Source: an uncultured Methanosarcinaceae archaeon (GTDB lineage Archaea > Halobacteriota > Methanosarcinia > Methanosarcinales > Methanosarcinaceae). Taken from it: DNA of 64,000 nucleotides. Positions 10,019 to 60,366 of this stretch are shown one piece after another. The notes below the pieces were generated by a model, which was not told the DNA's origin, made no database searches, and saw only the letters and a list, made by a program, of their open reading frames with translations. The DNA is taken from the NCBI GenBank assembly GCA_963727895.1, contig CAVSHT010000009.1, positions 128,001 through 192,000 on the forward strand, read 5' to 3'. The first letter of the stretch is position 1, and every line of letters begins with the position of its first letter. Made by a program: the position numbers and the translations under genes.

Positions 10019-10128
10019 CTTTAAATATATAAATCAAGGAAGATATGAAAAAACCAGAACAAAGAGAAATTAGAAATGAAAGTAGAAAAATTTTTGAAGT
10101 ATACCTAAAAGAACAAATGTGAAAGAAT

Positions 10129-10914
10129 ATGAAGGAACCTGTTTTTAGTTACGTACCTGGGACTTCTTTTCTTCACAGGCTTGATCCCAGGACAAAAATC
10201 GTAGCAGTAATGCTTTTAGGAATTCTGACTTTCAGGATTGAAAACTTTTGCAGGTATAGGGATTCTTTTCGCATTTTTCGTTGTCCTTGCTTTACTCTCA
10301 GCGTTGCCTATGAAAATATTTTTCAGATCAGTAAAGCCTATGATGCTGTTTATACTCTTTATTTTTCTTACAAAGCTATTTTTTACCGATGGTAAAACCC
10401 TTGCTTCTTATTGGATTTTGCAACCAAGTCTGGAAGGGTTGGAAACTGGGCTCAAACTTGCTGCCCAATTTATACTCCTTTTGCTTTTTGCAGCCCTTTT
10501 GACAGCCAGTACCGATCCTTCGGCAATTACCGCGGCATAGAAAGAATGCTAAGACCTTTACCGCTTCAATGGCTGAAAATCAGTTCTTTTGAGCTTGCTA
10601 CGATGATGAATATTTCTATAGCATTTCTTCCTCTTCTGTTTGAACGAGTTGAGAGGACAAAAGCTGCTCAGGCTGCAAGAGGAATGGATTTTGTAAGGAA
10701 TCCTCTTCGTTCAATTCCTGCCCTTGCGATTCCTCTGCTAAGAGGTGTAGTCAGGGACGCTGAGGAACTTGCTCTTGCAATGGAAAGCAGAGGTTACCAG
10801 GGAAAAAGGCGGACTTCAATACATGAGCTTTCCATGCAGAAAAGTGATTGGAGGGCTCTTTTTATCCTTACACTTTTTACCATTGTTCTTTTGAATTCTC
10901 TGAAAATAACATGA
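10129..10914 (+). pseudogene. ECF transmembrane component EcfT, two frameshifts
   Basis: HRLDPRTK N-terminus and AQAARG / AMESRG motifs split over three ORFs; may be sequencing indels. Confidence 0.85.
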
Positions 10915-11010: not shown

Positions 11011-11358
11011 ATGCAAGATAAATGTGAAAGAGTGGATTTAAAACAGATAGAATACTTGTTACAAAAGGTTCCTGATCCAGAAAATATCACACGTATGGCT
11101 GCAGTTTTTCAGGCGCTCCAGTCCGATACTCGCCTTAAAATCCTGTTCTTGCTAAGGCAAAAAGAGATGTGTGTCTGCGAACTCGAGCAGGCGCTTAGTG
11201 TTACTCAGTCTGCAGTCTCGCATGGTCTTCGAACCCTCAGACAGCTTGACCTCGTGAGGGTCAGAAGAGAGGGAAAATTTACGATTTATTATATTGCAGA
11301 CGAGCATGTCAGCACGTTGATTGAGATGTGTCTTGAACATGTGGAGGAAAAAGCATGA
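11011..11358 (+). CDS. ArsR/SmtB-family metalloregulator
   Basis: EMCVCEL, QSAVSHGLRTLR, DEHV...LEH. Confidence 0.93.
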   Translation: MQDKCERVDLKQIEYLLQKVPDPENITRMAAVFQALQSDTRLKILFLLRQKEMCVCELEQALSVTQSAVSHGLRTLRQLDLVRVRREGKFTIYYIADEHVSTLIEMCLEHVEEKA

Positions 11359-12728
11359 GCTTTGAATTCCTAGACGTTTTTCTGATCCTTATTTCAGGCG
11401 TTCTCCTCGAATCATGGAAAATCTTTGTAGAGGCAGCTCCTTATCTTATTTTCGGCCTGGGAATTGCAGGCATTCTCAATATTCTGGTTCCTGACCAGAA
11501 AATAGTGGATTACCTTGGAGCATCGGCAGGAAAAGTTCGTTCTGTTGTCAATGCATCCCTGGCAGGCCTGCCCCTTGCCACTATGCTCCTGTGGAGTAAT
11601 TCCTGCAGCTATGTCGATAAGAAAAAGGGGAGCAAACCGAGGTGCAACCCTTATCCTTCCTTATTTCGACTCCTGAGACAGGAGTAGACTCAATAGCAGT
11701 GACTTATGCTCTTCTGGACCCTCTTATGGCAGTTTTCCGTCCACTTGCTGCCCTGACGACTGCTATTCTTGCTGGACTTGCAGACAATTTTTTGATAGGA
11801 GAAGACCGAGGAAACGAAGAAAGCAGCAAAAAACAGGAAAATTCTGAGTAAAAAAGCAGGAGTGTTTGCAGCCTCAACTTTGATTGGATCTTCTGTTCAG
11901 GAAGACTCATGCAGTTCTCCTTTCTGTAGTTGCAATAATCTAGTAGATTCAAATAATAGAAAAATCGAATCTGTTGGCACTATGGTTAAAGCTATAGAAT
12001 TAAACCTTCAGGAGTAAAACCTCTTGAAATCAATAATAAACTTGAAGGTGTCCGAAAACTTACCCTAGTGAATCAAAACTTCCAGAAAGATACTACTTCA
12101 TGCGGCTGCAGAAGCTGTGGGTGCGGAGAAACAGAATCCGGAAAAGATGGGAAAACATAAGGATTCTGGAACAACCAGATTGATTAAAGGGATAAAATAT
12201 GCTTATATCGAGTTACTGGCAGAGATTTCTAAATGGATGCTTGTTGGAATCTTGTTTGCAGGAATTATTTCCTACGCAGTCCCCGAAAGCTTGATCCAGA
12301 ATTATCTGGGCGGTGGGTTCAGGTCAATGCTGGTTATGCTTTTAGTTGGAATTCCTCTTTATATCTGCGCTACAGCCTCTACTCCTCTTGCCGCAAGTCT
12401 TGTAGCCAAGGGAATGAGTCCAGGCACAGCTTTTGTTTTCCTCCTTGCAGGCCCGGCAACCAATGCAGCAACTATAACAATGGTTGCTCGTTTTCTTGGA
12501 AAACGTTCGGCAACCCTGTATCTTGCAACGATTTCCATATGTGCTATTGGGGCAGGATTCTTGCTGGACTGGTTATATCTGAAGCTAGGGATTAGTGCAG
12601 TAGCAACTGTGGGAACTGCAAAAGAATTGCTTCCTGAAGATCTGAAGCTGGGACTTGCACTTGTCCTCCTTCCTTTTATGTTATATGGTATTTTTCGCAG
12701 CGAAAAAGAGTGTGGTTGTTCTAACTGA
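11355..12728 (+). pseudogene. DUF318/SO_0444-like heavy-metal permease, frameshifted
   Basis: FLISTPETGVDS, PLYICATASTP, FLLAGPATN motifs spread over several frames with a Cys-rich linker. Confidence 0.85.
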
Positions 12729-40446: not shown

Positions 40447-40704
40447 TTATTCTTGATTTCCGCCCTGAATTCCCTTCAAGGAACGGATTGCAAGAGCTAC
40501 GAATGTTACTAGGACGACTACACCTACGATATTAACACCATTATTCCAGACTGAAGCACCCGTTGTTGCATTTGCAAAGTCCCCAGATTTATTAACCGGC
40601 ATTGCCTGTGAAACTTTTTCACCAATACCCGGCCCTAAATAGAATATAATAACGAGCGTGAGAAGCCCAACACACATCCCTACAAGTTCGGTCATTGTAC
40701 TCAT
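40447..40704 (-). CDS. 85-aa helical-hairpin membrane protein, spindle-virus MCP-like or pilin-like
   Basis: Two hydrophobic helices; linker with NKS and NAT sequons; own TTTATATA box and AGGTGA RBS. Confidence 0.6.
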   Translation of the reverse strand: MSTMTELVGMCVGLLTLVIIFYLGPGIGEKVSQAMPVNKSGDFANATTGASVWNNGVNIVGVVVLVTFVALAIRSLKGIQGGNQE

Positions 40705-40881: not shown

Positions 40882-43800
40882 TTATCCCAACATTGTCCCT
40901 AAACTACCTAAACGATTGTATATAGTTCGTTTTTTATTTATTTGACTAATTGACTTCTTTACGGGGATTTTCACCTCTTTCTTTTTCTTTTTCGCTGAAT
41001 TTTTCTCATCACCGTTTTTCCGCATCAGTAGATATGCTAAACTACTTTTTTGAGTATTAGCCATTCTTACCGAAGCGCTTTTATTGTTAACTGATCCCGT
41101 TGAGTTGCTTGCCCCTTTTGAACCTCTTGAATTCCCCTGCAGTGCAGCTGTGGAGAACTTAGGAAGTGTCAATACTGCTTTTGAAATTTGCTTTGATCCC
41201 TGTGAGCCTTGCTTACTACCGTTTCGATTTATACTGTTGTTAGAGTTTCCAGATTTTGAGTTTGGAGATGCAACAGTCTTTTTTTGTCGAAGACACAGTA
41301 ATTGAGCCCGATCCTAGCATAGTGCTTATATTTCCCAATTTATTGAATATGGTTCTATTTCTGTTTATTTCACTGCTAGTATGCTTCACATACTGCTGTG
41401 ATTTTTTCTTTTTGTTTGTATCTATTACGTCTTTACGCTTTTTTAGCATGTGTAGGAAGGCTATTGAGCTGTTTTTAGCTGAGTACTCCGGTAAGGATTG
41501 CCCGCTTTGTGAAGTTGTGCTTTTTTCTGTCACTGATTTTACACCCTGAGATATTTTTGGGATGTTTAAATTGCTTAATATTTTAGTAATACTTGAAACA
41601 TCCGATATCGTTTTAGGTGAAACTAGTGAGAGGCTTTTGCTTGACTTTGTTCCAGCGGACGCTGAGTTTAACTTTTTACCCGCAGTTGATGCTATTGCAC
41701 TCCTGCTAGATCCTGAACGTTTTACTGCCCCCTTTGAAGAACCTAGCATATTAGGTTGATATTGAGTTGCTTTTTTGATCCAAAATCATCACTATATCTC
41801 TTGTTCACGCTTTTCAATTGATGAAACACACAAAAAGAATGAACCACTTCAGGAAAGACGCTTTTTACAGCTCCAATGATTGCTTTATCTTCATCAGAAA
41901 CGATTTTTTGTATTTTGCCTTCTGGAAATCGGTTTTTTATTCGTAGGATAAGAGAAATTAGAGCTTCAATTGTTGGTAACCTGTCAGTTACCTCAAAATC
42001 CAAAATTACCTTTTCTTTTGTAGCGATAACGTAAACGGATTGATATCGCATCTTTTTCCATTTTTTTAATGTAATCTCTCGTCCTATCAGAGTCTCAAAC
42101 TTCTTTTTCCATCCTTTCTTGACCCGATCTCCATCAATATACAAAGTTCCATCAAAATCAGGATTTTGATATAAAAGTTCTTGCTTAGAAAATACAGATT
42201 GTTTTTGCTCATGCAACCATAATGAAGAGGCACAAGGAGCTCTGCCGCATATATCAGTCAAACCTTCTGTATATGTTTCGCCTACCCTACAGGAATTGTG
42301 AAGACTGCATCTGCTATCGTATCTGACAAGCATTTGTTTGTCATAGAACTCATCACTGTAATTTGCGGATCCAGAAACACCAACGATCTGATCATGAAAA
42401 TGCTTTTTACAAGTAGGACAAATCCAGTATGTAGTATTGCAAGTTATGGTGCCATAACTTGTGAGAATTGAACGAGTATAGTGAGAGTTCACATTTAATT
42501 TAGCGCCACAAAAATCACAATGAGTAGGAGATATTAAAGAGAACAGAGAATGAAAGCGATTTTCAACTAGCAATTTCGGCAAAGGAATTAATACATTGCC
42601 TTCAAGTATCGTTTTTACCATTGAATTCTCGATTGATTTATTTCCTCTTCCCATTAAAACGAATTTATCTCAATGAAATTAAAATTTTATTGTTTTGCAC
42701 GATTGAGAAAAAAGAGGTAGACCAGAAAATAATAAAAAGTCTCTAATCTAGAGACCTCATTTTCAGCATTTTGTGCAGCCCTGTCACGTAAAGATCCGTT
42801 TGGAGCAGTAGCAGCCGAACTGATTTCACCTGCATTACTAATAATTTCATCAAAACCTTTTTTATTCCCCTGATCTTCATAAATAAACTCTTTTTCTCCT
42901 TCGGTTGTCACTCCCACAAGTTTATTAAGTTCTGCTTTAGTCGGAAGTCTATCATTTGTCACAATGAACTCAGCAACTGGGGAATACGCTTTTGATTGTG
43001 TGTTATCTATTATGTTAGGATACTTTTCTGCTACCGCTTTTGTGTAACTTACCACATCTGCAGCTTTACCCGTGCCTTTAATTACTTTGTTCGATGTTCC
43101 GATCTCTACTAGGTCACGAACATCTTTCACCCTGCCTGCGTGAGCAACTTCCACAGACTTTCCACCTTTAAGGAAAGTACTTCCAGCATATTTACGGGCA
43201 GCCTGTTCCTGTAATTTCATTAATTTTACGCCGTCGACTTTCAGCGATTTCAACTCGCCAAAGTTGTAAGCGATACCTTCCTGTTTTTGCCATCCCTGCT
43301 TAAGCTAGTCTTGTGTTTCTGCTATGTCCAAGAGGCTTGACTTTGCGTTATGGTTAAAGACTTCAACTCCTTTTTCCCAGTTCCCATTTACTTTAAAGGC
43401 TATTTTAGGCTCATTGGTGCCTTTATTTTCTACTTTGAAATCCTTGCCTTCTGAAAACCCTTTTTTAGTGGCAGCTGTAGCAAATTTCTGTATATATGCT
43501 GTTGGATTATCAACGTAGATTTCGAGATCTCCGGGGGTACGAGTCAAGTATTTTTCCATTTGCAATTTCTGCGCATTGGAACCCGCAACTTGAATTTTAT
43601 AATCAGTTCCACCTTTTAGAGACCTAACTGCACTTTTTATGCCTGAATCTTTCCCGTATGACTGGATAGACTCTGTTAATGCCGCTCGCATTTTTGTAGG
43701 CACATCAGTACTTAGTATAGAGAATTTCTCAGGATTTACAACTGTATTTTTAGCATTGTAGGCAGCGGTTGCAACACGTTTACCGGCTGCATAATATGTT

Positions 43801-46800
43801 TTATCCGCGTCACTGAGTACATCGGATACATACCTATTCAGAATCTTTTCTCCTGTTTTATCGTAGGCCTGAACTGAGCATTCAACTTTTACCTGTTTAC
43901 TTGTTTTTCCCAGTTTATTCAGCTCATTTATCGCATCCACATTTATGTAAGATTTTAGAGTTTCAGCGTTTGGAGCAACGCGACCAAGATGCAACCCGCT
44001 TTTACTGTCAGATGAAACAGTATTTAAGAAAGTTGTACCTTGATGTAGATTTCTAGTGTTTCCGCTTGATCCCAGTGAGGTCTCTTTCAAATCACCCGAT
44101 TTTAGCCCGGGGGTTAATAAGTACGGGTTTTTTGTTTCAAAAGCTTCAGCACCTTTTCCGAAGGCTTTTAATCCTACAGCTAGGGAAGCCACAACATCTA
44201 AGTCTTTTTCAATGTCAGTAAACATGTTAGTGTATTTAGCTGACGATGCTATCATGTCTACGCCCATCACGGCACCCGGTGCAGCTCCAACTGCTTTGGC
44301 TGCATAAGGTACAATTGGCTATCTTAGCACTGCTTTCAGCAACTGGCTTCAAAGCTTTAAGCGTTGCAGCGGATAAACCAAGTTCTGCACCTTTTAAAGC
44401 GGCTCCGCCTATGGCAGACTCTGCAACAAGAACACCAACGTCAGCGGCTGCGTTCAATGGTTGATTTTTAGCATAGTTATACTTGTTTACCTCCCAGTTG
44501 CGAATAGCTGAAAGCCGTGAGTCACTGTCAACTGTTTTTTCCCACTTGTTCATTACACTGTTTCCTAGTGCTTTTCTTAACGCTGAGTTTCCAGCTGTTT
44601 GAACTGTGCTTACATTAGGGATATATTTTGATACTGCTTTATTTGAAGCATCTACTGCAGCAGCGGCCCTTTTATAGCTAAAAGTATCTATAAATTTTGT
44701 ATTTAGCTTTGCGGAGGCTGCTCCAAGTCCGCCATTTTTAATCTCAGCATTATACAGAGCTAAATCAGCCGCTGCTTGTATTTCGGCTGCTTTCTGAGCG
44801 ACTGTTTTAAACGATTGAAGATCTGTAAATGTTGCTTTTTCACCTGTAAGGGTGGAATATCCATTTTTCGCCGTTGCGGTCATCGGGGATACTACTCCGT
44901 AGTTTAGCAACTTTGCAGTAGCCTGCTTTTCCTTTTCCTCCTGAGCCTGCTTTACTTTTTGAATTGCTCCATACTGTGATGCCGTCTTTGAAACTGCTGT
45001 AAGCTTACCGGTTTTATCGGTTCTTAGTACTCTTACCTCTGATTCTCCTGTGCTTGCAGCTCCGTTTGTTTGAATCTGGTGTATAACCCTGTTATTTTTG
45101 CCCACAACGTCTTTAAAAGCCGCATTTAGCTTTTTTGCTGTTTCTGCTTCGATTTTTGCTGCTGCTACTGCCGCAGTGTACCCCGCATTTGAAGTAGCAG
45201 CTTTTGCTCTACCACCTACGGTGGCACCTGTCAGGTATTGTTGAGTTGTAGTTTTTCCCTTTGCAATCATTGCCTTATAGTCGGCTAAATTTTGAGATTT
45301 TTCCGCAACGGAGGAACCATATATTGTTTTAGCAACCTTTGAGTTAGGATTTGAGGCCCCATTTTATTCAATATCAGCTGTCCTGATTAAGGGAGAGGAT
45401 TCCTTTATCACACTAGCATGATTGGAAGTAACTTGTTTCGCTAGTTTGTTCAGATTCTCAGAAGTGGCTTTTGCAGTCGAACAGGTACCAGCCTGCAATT
45501 TCTTTGCTTGTGCAGATATGACTTTGGGAGCTACAGCTTTAACCGCCTGTGTCGTTGCGGTTAATTTTGTTGCGAGTTTTGCAGTAGCAGTTGAGATAAT
45601 TTTTGCGGGTGCTGTTTTTGAAGCTGCAACTGAACCTGAGGTTGCAACTCCCTTGGAGTAGTTTGAACTTTTCGTGTTAGAAGGATTGTTTATATTGTTT
45701 GCAACATGTGAGACAACCCCCTTTGATTCTAAAGCGGAGCTCTGGGCAAGTTCTTTTTGTATGTCTGCAATCTGTCCCTCTGCCTTAGCATTAGCTGCAT
45801 TGCGAGCAGCTGTAACTGAGGCACTTTCTTTAGCAGCGTCCTCTAGATACACAGGCGGAGACTGTGTATTGGCAGGAGCTTCATAATACCATTTTATATA
45901 TGCAGGGTTGTAATGTTTGCCTGTGTTGTTTGAGGCTTCTCTTGCATTCCACTTGTTGAGTGTCTGCTGTTCTTGAGAATTGAGACTTCCAGAATAATAA
46001 TTTGAAGTTGTAGTATTTGCAGCTGCTGCACTCGCTGCTTTTACTGATTGTGCTTTTACAGTAGCGGTATATGCTTTTTCAATTGCAGTACTATAGGAAT
46101 CTATAGCGGACTGTGCTTCTTTCTGCGTTTTGTATGTGGTTGTTTTAGGCGCAGTTGCAGACACTCCATAAGCCTTTGCAGTCGCTGATAAGGATTTCAC
46201 AGAACTTGATATGTCGTATGTTGTAGTAGTGGTTGCAGTTGCAACTTTAGTAGAGACAGACCCCCCGCTCGAAGAGGTAGTTTTTGCAGAACTACTTGCG
46301 TTTGAGCTTAGTTTTTTATTAACCTCAGTTGTATAACTATCAATTATACTTTGAGCTTTCTTTGAGTCTGTAATTGTTGAGCCATAGATTTTAGGCTTGG
46401 ACACACTTAAACCAGCTGCTACAGCCTGTTTGTAAACACTTGCGAGAGCGGAATCTACGTCATAATACGAAGCGGTCTTAGCTGCCGCTGAAGCTGTGAC
46501 ATTTTTAGCCGCTGTTGCTGCCTTACTAGACTGACTAGATTGACTAGGTTGGCTGGCTTGTGAGGTTGTGGTATATTTTGCAGCAATTAGCTCATTTGCC
46601 TTTGAAACATACGAGTCGACTATGCCTTGAGCTACAGAAGCACTTTTTATGGATTTGCCATAAGAAGCCGGAATGGTTAAACTAACACCATATGCAGCAG
46701 CCTGTGCTTTAATAGATGCAAGTGCAGAATCAATATCATAATATGTATCAGAAACTGTAGATCCAGTACCACGTACTGCAGTGTGATTACTTGTTACATT

Positions 46801-47055
46801 TGAAGTTAATTTACTTTTTGATGTTAATGCAGCACTTTTTACAGCGTTTACAACAGTCTGTTTTTTTGCTGAAACTACTGAAGATGAGGACGAGGCAGTT
46901 GTAGATGATGTATTAGCGGCAAGCCGGGCATCGTTGGCAGCTTTAGCCTTTTGAACTTCAGCACCATTTGAACCGGTTACCACTTGAAGCGAGCCGTCTG
47001 CTGCTGTATATTTTAGAATAACCCCGCCACTTGGAGTTGAGCCATAAATTAACAT
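40882..47055 (-). pseudogene. Giant A/S/T/K-rich protein (~1,700 aa or more) with internal repeats and a nucleotidyltransferase-like domain
   Basis: Six collinear ORFs joined by an in-frame TAA (45364), a frameshift (~44310), an in-frame TAG (43305), an IS insertion and a frameshift (~41280). Confidence 0.75.
41770..42748 (-). mobile_element. Truncated DDE transposase element (ISNCY/ISMac19-like, tentative)
   Basis: CDFC...CPTC Zn ribbon, LYIDG, IVSDED, FCVFHQ; 3' part missing; interrupts the giant gene. Confidence 0.8.
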
Positions 47056-47562: not shown

Positions 47563-48101
47563 CTACCAAGCAACATTATAACCTAGAACTGTATCCAGAC
47601 TGTTATAATCTGGATTTCCATGGCGCAATGAGACAGGGGGTATAGGCGGAGCCTACCTTTAGGTCTACACGCTTGTCTGATTCTGTGCAATCGATGTAGA
47701 TTCTACCACGGTCTGTTGTGTCGAAGGCATTGCAGGCGTGACCAAAACCGCGACCAAGAGTGACTGCAACGAATCCGCAGGTTATAACCCGCAGCTTCTG
47801 CATGATTGTGTAGCATTTCGGCATAATCGGCACATTGAAACGAACTATTGTACAACATTTGATCTGTCGTGTCATTATCGACAAAATTGATTACCTGTTC
47901 ATAAGTAACGTATGTTGCATTTGGATTTTCAGTTAGGTTAATGTGGTGTCCATCTGCACCTAAATAATCCAACTTATGTACGTTGGCACTGTCTGAGGGG
48001 AAGAGATATGCGAAAGTTAACATTACTGCAAATACAGCAAATACAGCAAATGCAGCAAAAAAGCCTAAAATACAGACTTCTAGAATATCTTTAAAACCCA
48101 T
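47563..48101 (-). pseudogene. Membrane-anchored transglutaminase/papain-like Cys-His-Asp protein, frameshifted
   Basis: N-terminal TM, FQCADYAEMLHNHAE, then GHACNAFDTTDRGRIYIDC in the next frame. Confidence 0.65.
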
Positions 48102-52199: not shown

Positions 52200-52802
52200 T
52201 CATAATTTTGAGCGCCCCCTCACCCTGACAGCCTTTTTTGTATTACTCTGTTCCTCCAAAGCTTGCATTTCCAATGGTGCTAACATTAATTTTTGGGTCT
52301 CTACAATTATTCCCAGTAAGTCTATTTTCCCCTTTAAAACCTCAATTTCATCTCGTTCAACTGATAAATGTGCCGCTTCTGCCCGCAAAATATCATTTTC
52401 ATTTTTAATATCTTTATATGCTGCACCCTCTGACACATCAAGTTCTTTTTGGATAGTGAGATAAGGTACAAATTTTTTATAATACTCCTTCAATCCATCA
52501 ACATCCGCTTGATAATAATGGTTTTGTGTAGCAGGCAAAGAGTGCCCCATAAACTCTTCGGCATGGAAAAAGTCACATCCGGCGTTCAACATAGCTGAAT
52601 TAAAATACTTCCGCATGGTATGAGATCGGATTAAACCATAATTTCCCTTCTGAGTTTTCTTACTCGCTTTTGCTGCTAGATCTTTAAAAAGTTGAATAAA
52701 ACCAAATCGGTTAAATACACGCTCTTTTTCGTCAAAAGTATTTAAAAAAGTACTTGCAACCTTGCGGCGACAAAAAAGATAACTTGAGTCGTCATAAATA
52801 CC
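52200..52802 (-). pseudogene. Tyrosine recombinase/integrase, C-terminal fragment
   Basis: IRSHTMRKYF (HxxR), FMGH, NHYY; frame open to 52802; N-terminal part absent. Confidence 0.9.
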
Positions 52803-60293: not shown

Positions 60294-60366
60294 TAGTCCT
60301 GAGCGGATTCGAACCGCTGTCCCGGGCTCCAAAGGCCCGAAGGATTGACCACTACCCTACAGGACT
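60294..60366 (-). tRNA. tRNA-Gln(TTG)
   Basis: AGTCCTGTAGGGTAGTGGTCAATC...CGGGC-CTTTGGA-GCCCG...GGTTCGAATCCGCTCAGGACTA. Confidence 0.97.

Follow-up and report, generated by a model that had tools for sequence, protein, structure and literature searches.

Nucleotidyltransferases of the DUF1814 group, such as AbiEii and MenT, are small bacterial and archaeal toxins that are restrained by antitoxins, and JHP933 of Helicobacter pylori is a small stand-alone protein from a bacterial plasticity zone. Compared with other enzymes of the Pol-beta superfamily, DUF1814 proteins were described as having motifs I and II set further apart, an Arg within motif II, a Lys motif near the C-terminus and a +DxxD pentad (Dy et al. 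2014, PMC3985639); the same account lists G49, G50, R63, D67, D69, K173, R180 and D192 as mutagenised residues of AbiEii. Here we describe a nucleotidyltransferase (NTase)-like domain found in 64,000 nucleotides of DNA from an uncultured Methanosarcinaceae archaeon (assembly GCA_963727895.1, contig CAVSHT010000009.1, positions 128,001 to 192,000); this whole stretch is the window, and coordinates are counted from its first letter. The domain lies on the minus strand, in the remains of a giant gene of an integrated element. We consider it likely that it is the catalytic domain of an unannotated Pol-beta NTase family whose nearest known relatives are AbiEii, MenT1, MenT3, MenT4 and JHP933, that its carrier is an integrase-bearing non-tailed element, and that the copy in the window is a pseudogene.

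The domain occupies 42927..43874 (minus strand), about 315 codons from VQAYD to RLPTKAEL, with bounds taken from the alignment to four intact homologues. A preliminary description of the locus had reported the strings IQVAGSNA...RTPGDLEIYV, VEVF and LQEQAARK...GRVKDVRDL, in that order, after the joining of in-frame open reading frames (ORFs). The ORF translations confirmed all three on the minus strand within 43100-43650, in the order quoted: the stop-to-stop frame 44318..43305 (minus) contains DYKIQVAGSNAQKLQMEKYLTRTPGDLEIYV and then NWEKGVEVFNHN, and LMKLQEQAARKYAGSTFLKGGKSVEVAHAGRVKDVRDL is found in the same frame past one stop, in 43304..42687 (minus). The stop that separates the N- and C-terminal parts of the domain is a TAG at 43305-43307, and the whole domain is only visible when the two ORFs are joined. 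Residues were numbered on a 523-residue read of 42750-44318 (minus) in which X stands for the TAG. Motifs I and II, G246 S247 x12 R260 x3 D264 L E266, lie at 43521..43583 (minus), with the codons of G246/S247 at 43583-43578, R260 at 43541-43539, D264 at 43529-43527 and E266 at 43523-43521. The third carboxylate, E319 (43362..43364, minus; profile column 150), stands in G-V-E-V-F. Motif III, L369 x E371 Q372 x x R375 K376, and motif IV, R396 x K398 D399 x x D402, are contained in 43113..43214 (minus), K376 being encoded at 43193-43191 and R396, K398, D399 and D402 within 43133-43113.

A six-frame search recovered homologues of the domain in 5 of 201 genomes of the order, this genome included, and the intact homologues have open frames of 1995, 876, 995 and 1160 aa. 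The alignment of the window copy with the four intact homologues contains 29 invariant columns, among them G246, S247, R260, D264, L369, E371, Q372, R375, K376, R396, K398, D399 and D402. Searching 1.84 billion representative proteins with a profile built from the four intact domains retrieved 332 clusters at E<=1e-3, with 129 at <=1e-10 and 48 at <=1e-30. In these the domain is nearly always located mid-protein, in proteins of about 600-2600 aa (median 876 aa), and the source names of the clusters are 'hypothetical' or absent.

Conservation across the family was counted in the representatives of the best 150 of the 332 clusters (clusters at 50% identity or less), aligned to the profile. The Gly of motif I is present in 143/143 and the Ser in 140/143, with Thr in the remaining 3; the Arg four residues ahead of the first Asp is found in 134/143, the first Asp in 145/145, and an acidic residue two positions further on in 142/145 (D 92, E 50). 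The third acidic residue is kept in 130/143 (D 80, E 50). For motif III the counts are E 132/142, Q 126/142, R 132/142 and K 140/142; a Pro column follows the same trend (118/139), and for motif IV, R-x-K-D-x-x-D, they are R 124/138, K 136/138, D 136/138 and D 132/136. The spacing G[ST]-x12-R-x3-D-x-[DE] is the modal one, seen in 90 of the 134 representatives, among the 150, that match the general pattern. As judged from these alignments, the motif pattern is far beyond chance, because its residues, invariant in the window copy and the four intact homologues, are near-invariant across the 150 representatives. The same counts bear on whether the fold might be a structural module without catalytic activity, of the kind known from RsfS or NF45/NF90. 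We regard this as very improbable, since the catalytic positions are 91-100% conserved over 150 divergent representatives, which is unexpected for a pseudo-enzyme.

AlphaFold2 supplied with four sequences gave a mediocre model (predicted local distance difference test, pLDDT, 67.2), and with a 67-row alignment a confident one (pLDDT 94.1, predicted template modelling score, pTM, 0.91). The only low-confidence stretch of the latter is one disordered loop (residues 163-167), and it is within this variable loop that the TAG interrupts the window copy. In the model, strand 78-80 leads through G81/S82 into helix 82-92; the first Asp is at the head of strand 100-104, which carries the DxD/E motif, and strand 148-157 contains the third acid. 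The Lys belongs to helix 195-206, and helix 223-239 starts with KDxxD. This predicted layout is that of a canonical Pol-beta NTase core followed by a helical lobe. A Foldseek comparison with the PDB returned nothing at E<=1e-3; the 50 rows listed are all of NTase fold, nearly all of them active nucleotidyltransferases, and at the top stand JHP933 (E 3.5e-3, prob 0.99-1.00, template modelling (TM) scores 0.42/0.49) and MenT3 (E 7.6e-3). The list obtained with the shallow, four-sequence model likewise consists entirely of NTase folds. VIA-align gave scores of 8.0 for the Megavirus polyadenylate synthase (165 residues), 7.8 for TM1012 (137 residues), 7.5 for LnuA (142-143 residues), 7.4 for JHP933 (178-183 residues), 7.0 for MenT1 (146 residues), 6.2-6.7 for MenT3 (170-176 residues) and 6.4 for MenT4 (163 residues). 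In the ESM Atlas the nearest clusters by structure were AbiEii (TM 0.49/0.66), and the nearest by sequence features were phage clusters, a minority of them with Poly_A_pol_cat. A sequence-profile search of the PDB with the 4-row alignment stayed at chance level (best E 0.032, to an aldolase). The NTase fold that had been proposed from the order of the motifs is thus the one predicted by AlphaFold2, Foldseek and VIA-align.

The likeness to AbiEii, a type IV toxin of Streptococcus agalactiae and Lactococcus with a Pol-beta NTase core plus helical lobe, extends to the spacing of the motifs. The window offsets 0, +1, +14, +18 and +20 (G246, S247, R260, D264, E266) equal those of AbiEii G49, G50, R63, D67 and D69 as given by Dy et al. 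(PMC3985639), and the C-terminal Lys motif is present in the new domain within an L-x-E-x-x-A-x-K-like context, with the +DxxD pentad coming after it. Ten archaeal AbiEii proteins from genomes of the same class carry ...SL.EI.AEK..[SA]L..R....RD.YD, which parallels the ...LSEQ..RK... R.KD..D of the new family. However, the two differ in several respects. An extra hairpin of 8-10 residues is present between motifs III and IV of the new family; the new domain is embedded in giant proteins of 800-2600 aa, whereas AbiEii is a stand-alone toxin of about 250-300 aa; and the third metal ligand is often Glu (50 of 145), a substitution that inactivated AbiEii according to the same source (PMC3985639). 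A further difference concerns the column two residues before the first Asp. A Ser/Thr at this position is the auto-phosphorylation site described for MenT1 (T39) and MenT3 (S78) (PMC11375011), whereas in the new family 98/144 representatives have Pro there (P262 in the window copy), 10 have Val, 9 Thr and 6 Ala. Moreover, MenT1, MenT3 (TglT) and MenT4 of Mycobacterium tuberculosis belong to bacterial toxin-antitoxin (TA) loci, whereas the new family resides in an archaeal mobile element without a MenA antitoxin. The identity between the new domain and JHP933 (4o8s, 4ok0) is 10-12%.

Family searches gave no direct assignment. PF08843 had no match at E<=10 in the gene pieces of the window, the read joined by X or the four intact domains, nor in a six-frame family search of the whole genome in which the controls gave matches. 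Pfam, PADLOC and PHROGs yielded no family for the pieces, the X-joined read or the intact homologues, and a search of the neighbouring genes, both in the window and at the intact loci L009-L012, L033 and L034, revealed no AbiEi/MenA-type antitoxin family. With hhalign, the new family aligned to AbiEii over motifs I-II with a score of 20.1 (P 0.055), which is weak and above background (at most 16.1 in 30 block-shuffled controls, 9.7 and 10.9 in reversed ones). Motifs III/IV gave a weak alignment to those of AbiEii (E 0.082, with the AbiEii rows cut at the first Met). The score against generic MNT was at the same level (21.2, P 0.018), but this alignment required a 6-residue gap; the accepted pair AbiEii-MNT scored 17.2.

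The domain could also be a real NTase without a special tie to AbiEii/MenT, that is, an independent minimal-NTase or viral poly(A)-polymerase-like offshoot whose C-terminal motifs are convergent. We consider this unlikely. The gap in the MNT alignment falls between motifs I and II, where the AbiEii spacing fits ungapped, and the Arg at -4 and the +DxxD pentad, described as DUF1814-specific by Dy et al. (PMC3985639), are near-invariant here. In addition, DUF1814 structures head both the Foldseek list and the Atlas structure list, and they provide the longest alignments (163-183 residues), covering both lobes. The domain is therefore probably a new family of the Pol-beta superfamily with DUF1814 as its nearest relative, sister to AbiEii/MenT and not a DUF1814 member, because it has no PF08843 match, no antitoxin neighbour, and Pro at the phospho-site. 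Of the earlier assignment as an AbiEii/DUF1814-like nucleotidyltransferase, a Pol-beta-type domain with the AbiEii motif order stands; the PF08843 match, the antitoxin partner and the regulatory Ser/Thr are missing.

In the window, the giant gene is broken into pieces on the minus strand. Piece 1 (45364..47055) begins with an ATG at 47055 and comprises 563 codons up to an in-frame TAA at 45364-45366. By tblastn, residues 201-406 of an intact 1987-aa homologue, encoded at locus L009 of genome G181, match 46743..46072 within it (40% identity, E 2e-34). This N-terminal region (46743-46072, minus) contains three tandem repeats of about 55 aa, YYD[VI]DSAL...G[VL]S...AQ.I[VI]DSY, and the G181 homologue (L009 7006-12966) has four, with the general form YYDVD.SL...K.A..AGVSL.KP..YG......AQ.IID.Y; the repeats have no Pfam or PHROGs family match. 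Piece 2 (44236..45363, minus; 375 codons) continues the frame of piece 1 right after the TAA; an Ala/Lys/Gln-rich part comes first, and a moderately hydrophobic part rich in Gly and Ala follows. The frame changes within the 44236-44318 overlap, and piece 3 (43305..44318, minus; 337 codons), which ends at the TAG, encodes the N-terminal helices and the N-lobe of the domain with motifs I and II and the third acidic strand. Piece 4 (42744..43304, minus), in frame past the TAG, holds motif III (LQEQAARK), motif IV (RVKDVRD) and the end of the domain. The alignment of L009 residues 1095-1472 to 44216..42915 runs straight across the TAG (tblastn, E 7e-64).

Piece 4 is cut at 42743/42744 by an insertion sequence (IS) fragment (41777..42743). 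Copies on contigs C11 (L002) and C13 (L003) of the same genome share 99% identity with it over 967 and 716 bases, so that at least two other copies exist. The fragment carries a transposase ORF (42654..41743, minus; 303 aa) with a partial MULE-type domain (Pfam E 2.6e-7) and zinc-ribbon-like cysteines; this ORF extends 34 bases beyond the end of the similarity to the C11 copy. On the far side of the fragment, 40882..41785 (minus) holds two Ser/Lys-rich frames, 41785..41240 and 41313..40882, both ending in a basic ...N[RK]LG[NS][IL].TMLG motif that resembles two such motifs at the end of the L009 protein. From their sequence, these frames are probably the 3' remainder of the giant gene with one further frameshift; we grade this part as probable because the similarity to the L009 terminal motif is not significant (best E 1.8, blastp-short). 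No paralogue of the giant protein was found elsewhere in the same genome, where only its IS-derived last 20 residues recur.

The lesions of the giant gene thus comprise the TAA, the TAG, at least one frameshift and the IS fragment, and on this account the window copy is most likely a pseudogene in a decaying provirus and probably not functional here. Several observations weigh against the pseudogene call. A PylS homologue in the genome scores above the cut-off, and the lone TAG might be pyrrolysine; read-through of this single codon is possible. Some of the frameshifts may be assembly errors, given that host genes are likewise split: three reading frames are needed to cover each of two genes, that of an EcfT/CbiQ-type transporter subunit (10123-10914) and that of an ArsP-like permease (11337-12728), and pylS on contig C12 is broken up as well and contains a TGA. 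The assembly comprises 19 contigs, with a completeness of 84%. The split host genes reflect either wide gene loss in the genome or assembly indel errors, a choice that touches every pseudogene call in the window.

These observations would fit a gene that is intact in the organism, with frameshifts introduced by assembly, the TAG decoded as pyrrolysine and a working product. The split transporter, permease and pylS genes, the completeness and contig number, consistent with indel errors, and the PylS homologue favour it, as do the position of the TAG in the single variable, low-confidence loop of the domain and the fact that all catalytic residues are intact. We nevertheless judge it improbable: the TAA at 45364-45366 is beyond rescue by pyrrolysine decoding, 967 bases of IS fragment lie within the reading frame, the neighbouring gene at 47603-48101 is also split, and the whole 28-52 kb island is poor in long ORFs. 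Genome-wide recoding of a stop codon was rejected as the cause of the in-frame stops. ORFs of at least 150 aa in the window, counted by genetic code, numbered 35 with table 11, 43 with TAG=Q and 59 with TGA=W, the extra ones mostly overlapping existing ORFs, so that ORFs are not generally lengthened; no suppressor tRNA was present among the 3 tRNAs found (Arg-CCT, Arg-TCT, Gln-TTG).

Joined together, the pieces depict a protein of about 1700 aa in which the NTase domain is the central part, preceded by the N-terminal repeats, an Ala/Lys-rich and a Gly/Ala-rich region and followed by a Ser/Pro/Thr-rich linker and a basic C-terminus. The earlier placement of the domain inside a giant protein is borne out, and the giant gene belongs to a mobile element. 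In the wider family, tails of at least 100 residues past the domain occur in 121 members; nearly all include a low-complexity stretch rich in these residues and Gly, the median Ser+Pro+Thr+Gly content of the tails is 0.43, and the last 40 residues are net-basic in 100 of the 121. In L011 the low-complexity stretch is a near-perfect tandem array of units of about 23 aa. A transmembrane anchor upstream of the domain is not claimed, as 11/79 sequences reach a Kyte-Doolittle 19-residue mean of 1.6 (median 1.24).

The preliminary description had also called the protein polyvalent. Polyvalent proteins, as described by Iyer et al. (2017, PMC5512222), are large mobile-element proteins able to carry a Pol-beta NTase or GNAT domain; that account notes their paucity in archaea, with nearly all of those above 1000 aa being bacterial and tied to terminase-portal phages. 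The proteins described here are similar in size and setting, and one member, P0096, adds a GNAT acetyltransferase domain at residues 489-569, upstream of the NTase domain. However, their hosts are archaea, no terminase or portal was found, and in 37 of the 38 full-length members scanned no second Pfam domain was detected besides this one recognisable domain, which leaves the term weakly supported. The possibility that the giant proteins are tail tape measure proteins was rejected, since they have no PHROGs or Pfam match to such proteins and no tail, portal or capsid neighbours; one small neighbouring ORF has a weak match (E 0.0019).

FeoB, an iron-dependent (DtxR-type) repressor, an XPG/FEN-1-family nuclease, iPGM, PurH and a FilR1 methanogenesis regulator are encoded in the flanks, which marks the host as a methanogenic archaeon of the Methanosarcinales. 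The 28-52 kb region is GC-poor with few long ORFs, and a decaying integrated element is the best reading of it. Among homologous loci, the closest is that of G181, a genome of the same genus, and the gene order is as in the G181 element: a 158-aa gene, the giant gene and a gene of 82-85 aa. The first of these is split over two frames in the window (47603..48101, minus; blastp to the intact G181 gene 48% and 51%, E 4e-15 and 9e-12), and the third is an 85-aa ORF (40447..40704, minus) with 61% identity over 82 aa to the 82-aa G181 gene (E 1e-25), without a Pfam or PHROGs family. A 138-aa ORF at 52200-52613 (minus) weakly matches the C-terminal end of the phage integrase family (E 0.007) and may be a remnant of the element's integrase and a candidate island boundary. 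A tRNA-Gln gene (60294-60366) is located beyond it.

The intact loci L009-L012, L033 and L034 share a module of about 10 kb, composed of a tyrosine or SSV-type integrase, a P-loop ATPase that matches Zot and a PHROG annotated 'DnaA-like', about five small ORFs, the giant protein and a second large protein. The latter carries a DUF2341 or concanavalin-A-like lectin (Laminin_G_3) domain (L033 11724-14420; L012 10403-13462; L034 11714-13474 and 14678-16741) and is plausibly a host-recognition protein, a better surface or fibre candidate than the giant NTase protein. In the Methanohalophilus element, a protein with a CAP/cysteine-rich secretory domain (L010 10280-10900, minus; E 1.7e-16) is encoded directly after the giant gene. 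The G181 sister element (L009 999-4241, 13675-15116, 16813-17748) encodes a primase-helicase (DnaG-like, Toprim, DUF927) and the shared 'DnaA-like' ATPase, and an IS200/IS605 pair (Y1 transposase and TnpB-like) is inserted just after its giant gene. With Pfam and PHROGs, none of 38 neighbours, small or large, showed a capsid, portal or tail family, and the capsid-like gene said to adjoin the domain was not recovered. Matches to terminase-annotated PHROGs are weak (E 0.002-0.006) and confined to the ATPase ORFs.

Named records with the domain come from metagenome-assembled genomes (MAGs) of Methanosarcina, Methanomethylovorans and Archaeoglobaceae, from Ca. Methanoperedens, from an uncultured archaeon and from a 3.7-kb contig of a 'bacterium' MAG; in locus L032, titled as a Methanosarcina MAG, the domain is 100% identical. 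The best structure matches in BFVD were A0A5P9U643_2 (1041 aa, E 1.8e-5, TMq 0.62) and A0A514K2U2 (1125 aa, E 1.0e-3), a Nitrosopumilus spindle-shaped virus protein labelled 'IgA FC receptor'. Both exceed 1000 aa, and the identity is 12-15%. A tblastn search of INPHARED (50,697 phage and archaeal-virus records) with three members gave no match, and a scan of IMG/VR with two alignments confirmed 0/25 and 0/24 pattern stretches. Spindle-type virus contigs of 8-10 kb have been described from methanogen-enriched digesters, with one predicted to infect Methanosarcina (PMC9796341). The evidence points to small non-tailed, possibly spindle-shaped, proviruses; this stays a lead, because the BFVD matches are the only link to isolated viruses and neither IMG/VR nor INPHARED gave a sequence match.

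In the intact homologues, judging from the superfamily, the G-S loop and the three carboxylates would hold two Mg ions and the phosphates of a nucleoside triphosphate (NTP), and the Lys and the KDxxD lobe would bind the nucleotide, by analogy with guanosine triphosphate (GTP) binding in AbiEii (PMC3985639) and with MenT (PMC11375011). The enzyme would thus bind NTP-Mg and transfer a nucleoside monophosphate to a hydroxyl acceptor. By analogy with MenT, the acceptor may tentatively be sought at RNA 3' ends, tRNA first; a protein or the element's own nucleic acid is a less likely second choice. Regulation would be unlike that of the toxins, without an antitoxin and without the phospho-acceptor Ser/Thr. 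Control of the activity probably lies in the place and time at which the giant protein is deployed, given that this protein is the product of a core gene of very small elements and has no antitoxin.

One alternative is that the domain serves the element and does not attack the host. Its acceptor could, for example, be a protein or the ends of the element's own nucleic acid, for priming, tailing or genome linkage, and the basic C-terminus would then bind DNA. The giant gene is a core syntenic gene that takes up at least a quarter of elements of about 10 kb without a recognisable polymerase or Rep; the net-basic last 40 residues of 100/121 members are in keeping with DNA binding, and a non-toxic housekeeping role fits the lack of need for an antitoxin. 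However, no DUF1814-like enzyme is known for such a function in the sources cited here, where the characterised ones act on tRNA or bind GTP, and the G181 element has its own primase-helicase. We therefore hold this role to be rather unlikely.

Delivery in the virion, as suggested in the preliminary description, is doubtful. If it took place, delivery would replace the antitoxin as the means of control, with Pro replacing the phospho-acceptor. At its fullest, this proposal would make the family an archaeal counterpart of ejected polyvalent proteins: a virion-borne giant protein of small spindle-shaped or pleomorphic viruses of methanogens, anaerobic methanotrophic (ANME) archaea and Archaeoglobi, whose MenT-like NTase extends or blocks host tRNA 3' ends, or other RNA, at the start of infection. 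We give this complete scenario little credence.

The kind of enzyme is already known; the novelty lies in the family and its size (332 clusters, all unnamed), in the giant archaeal-element proteins into which it is fused, and in the lost features of TA regulation. A full-text literature search, with supplements outside its reach, found no description of this NTase family. For most genes of non-tailed archaeal viruses no function has been predicted. In this setting, a DUF1814-like catalytic signature in the middle of giant proteins, whose genes belong to the core of small integrated elements in methanogens and their relatives, offers a concrete enzymatic entry point, open to testing, into a gene module that is otherwise dark. 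Should the protein be virion-borne, it would represent a new mode of host takeover in archaea, and if the MenT-like activity also holds, a bacterial abortive-infection toxin fold would have been turned into a viral weapon.

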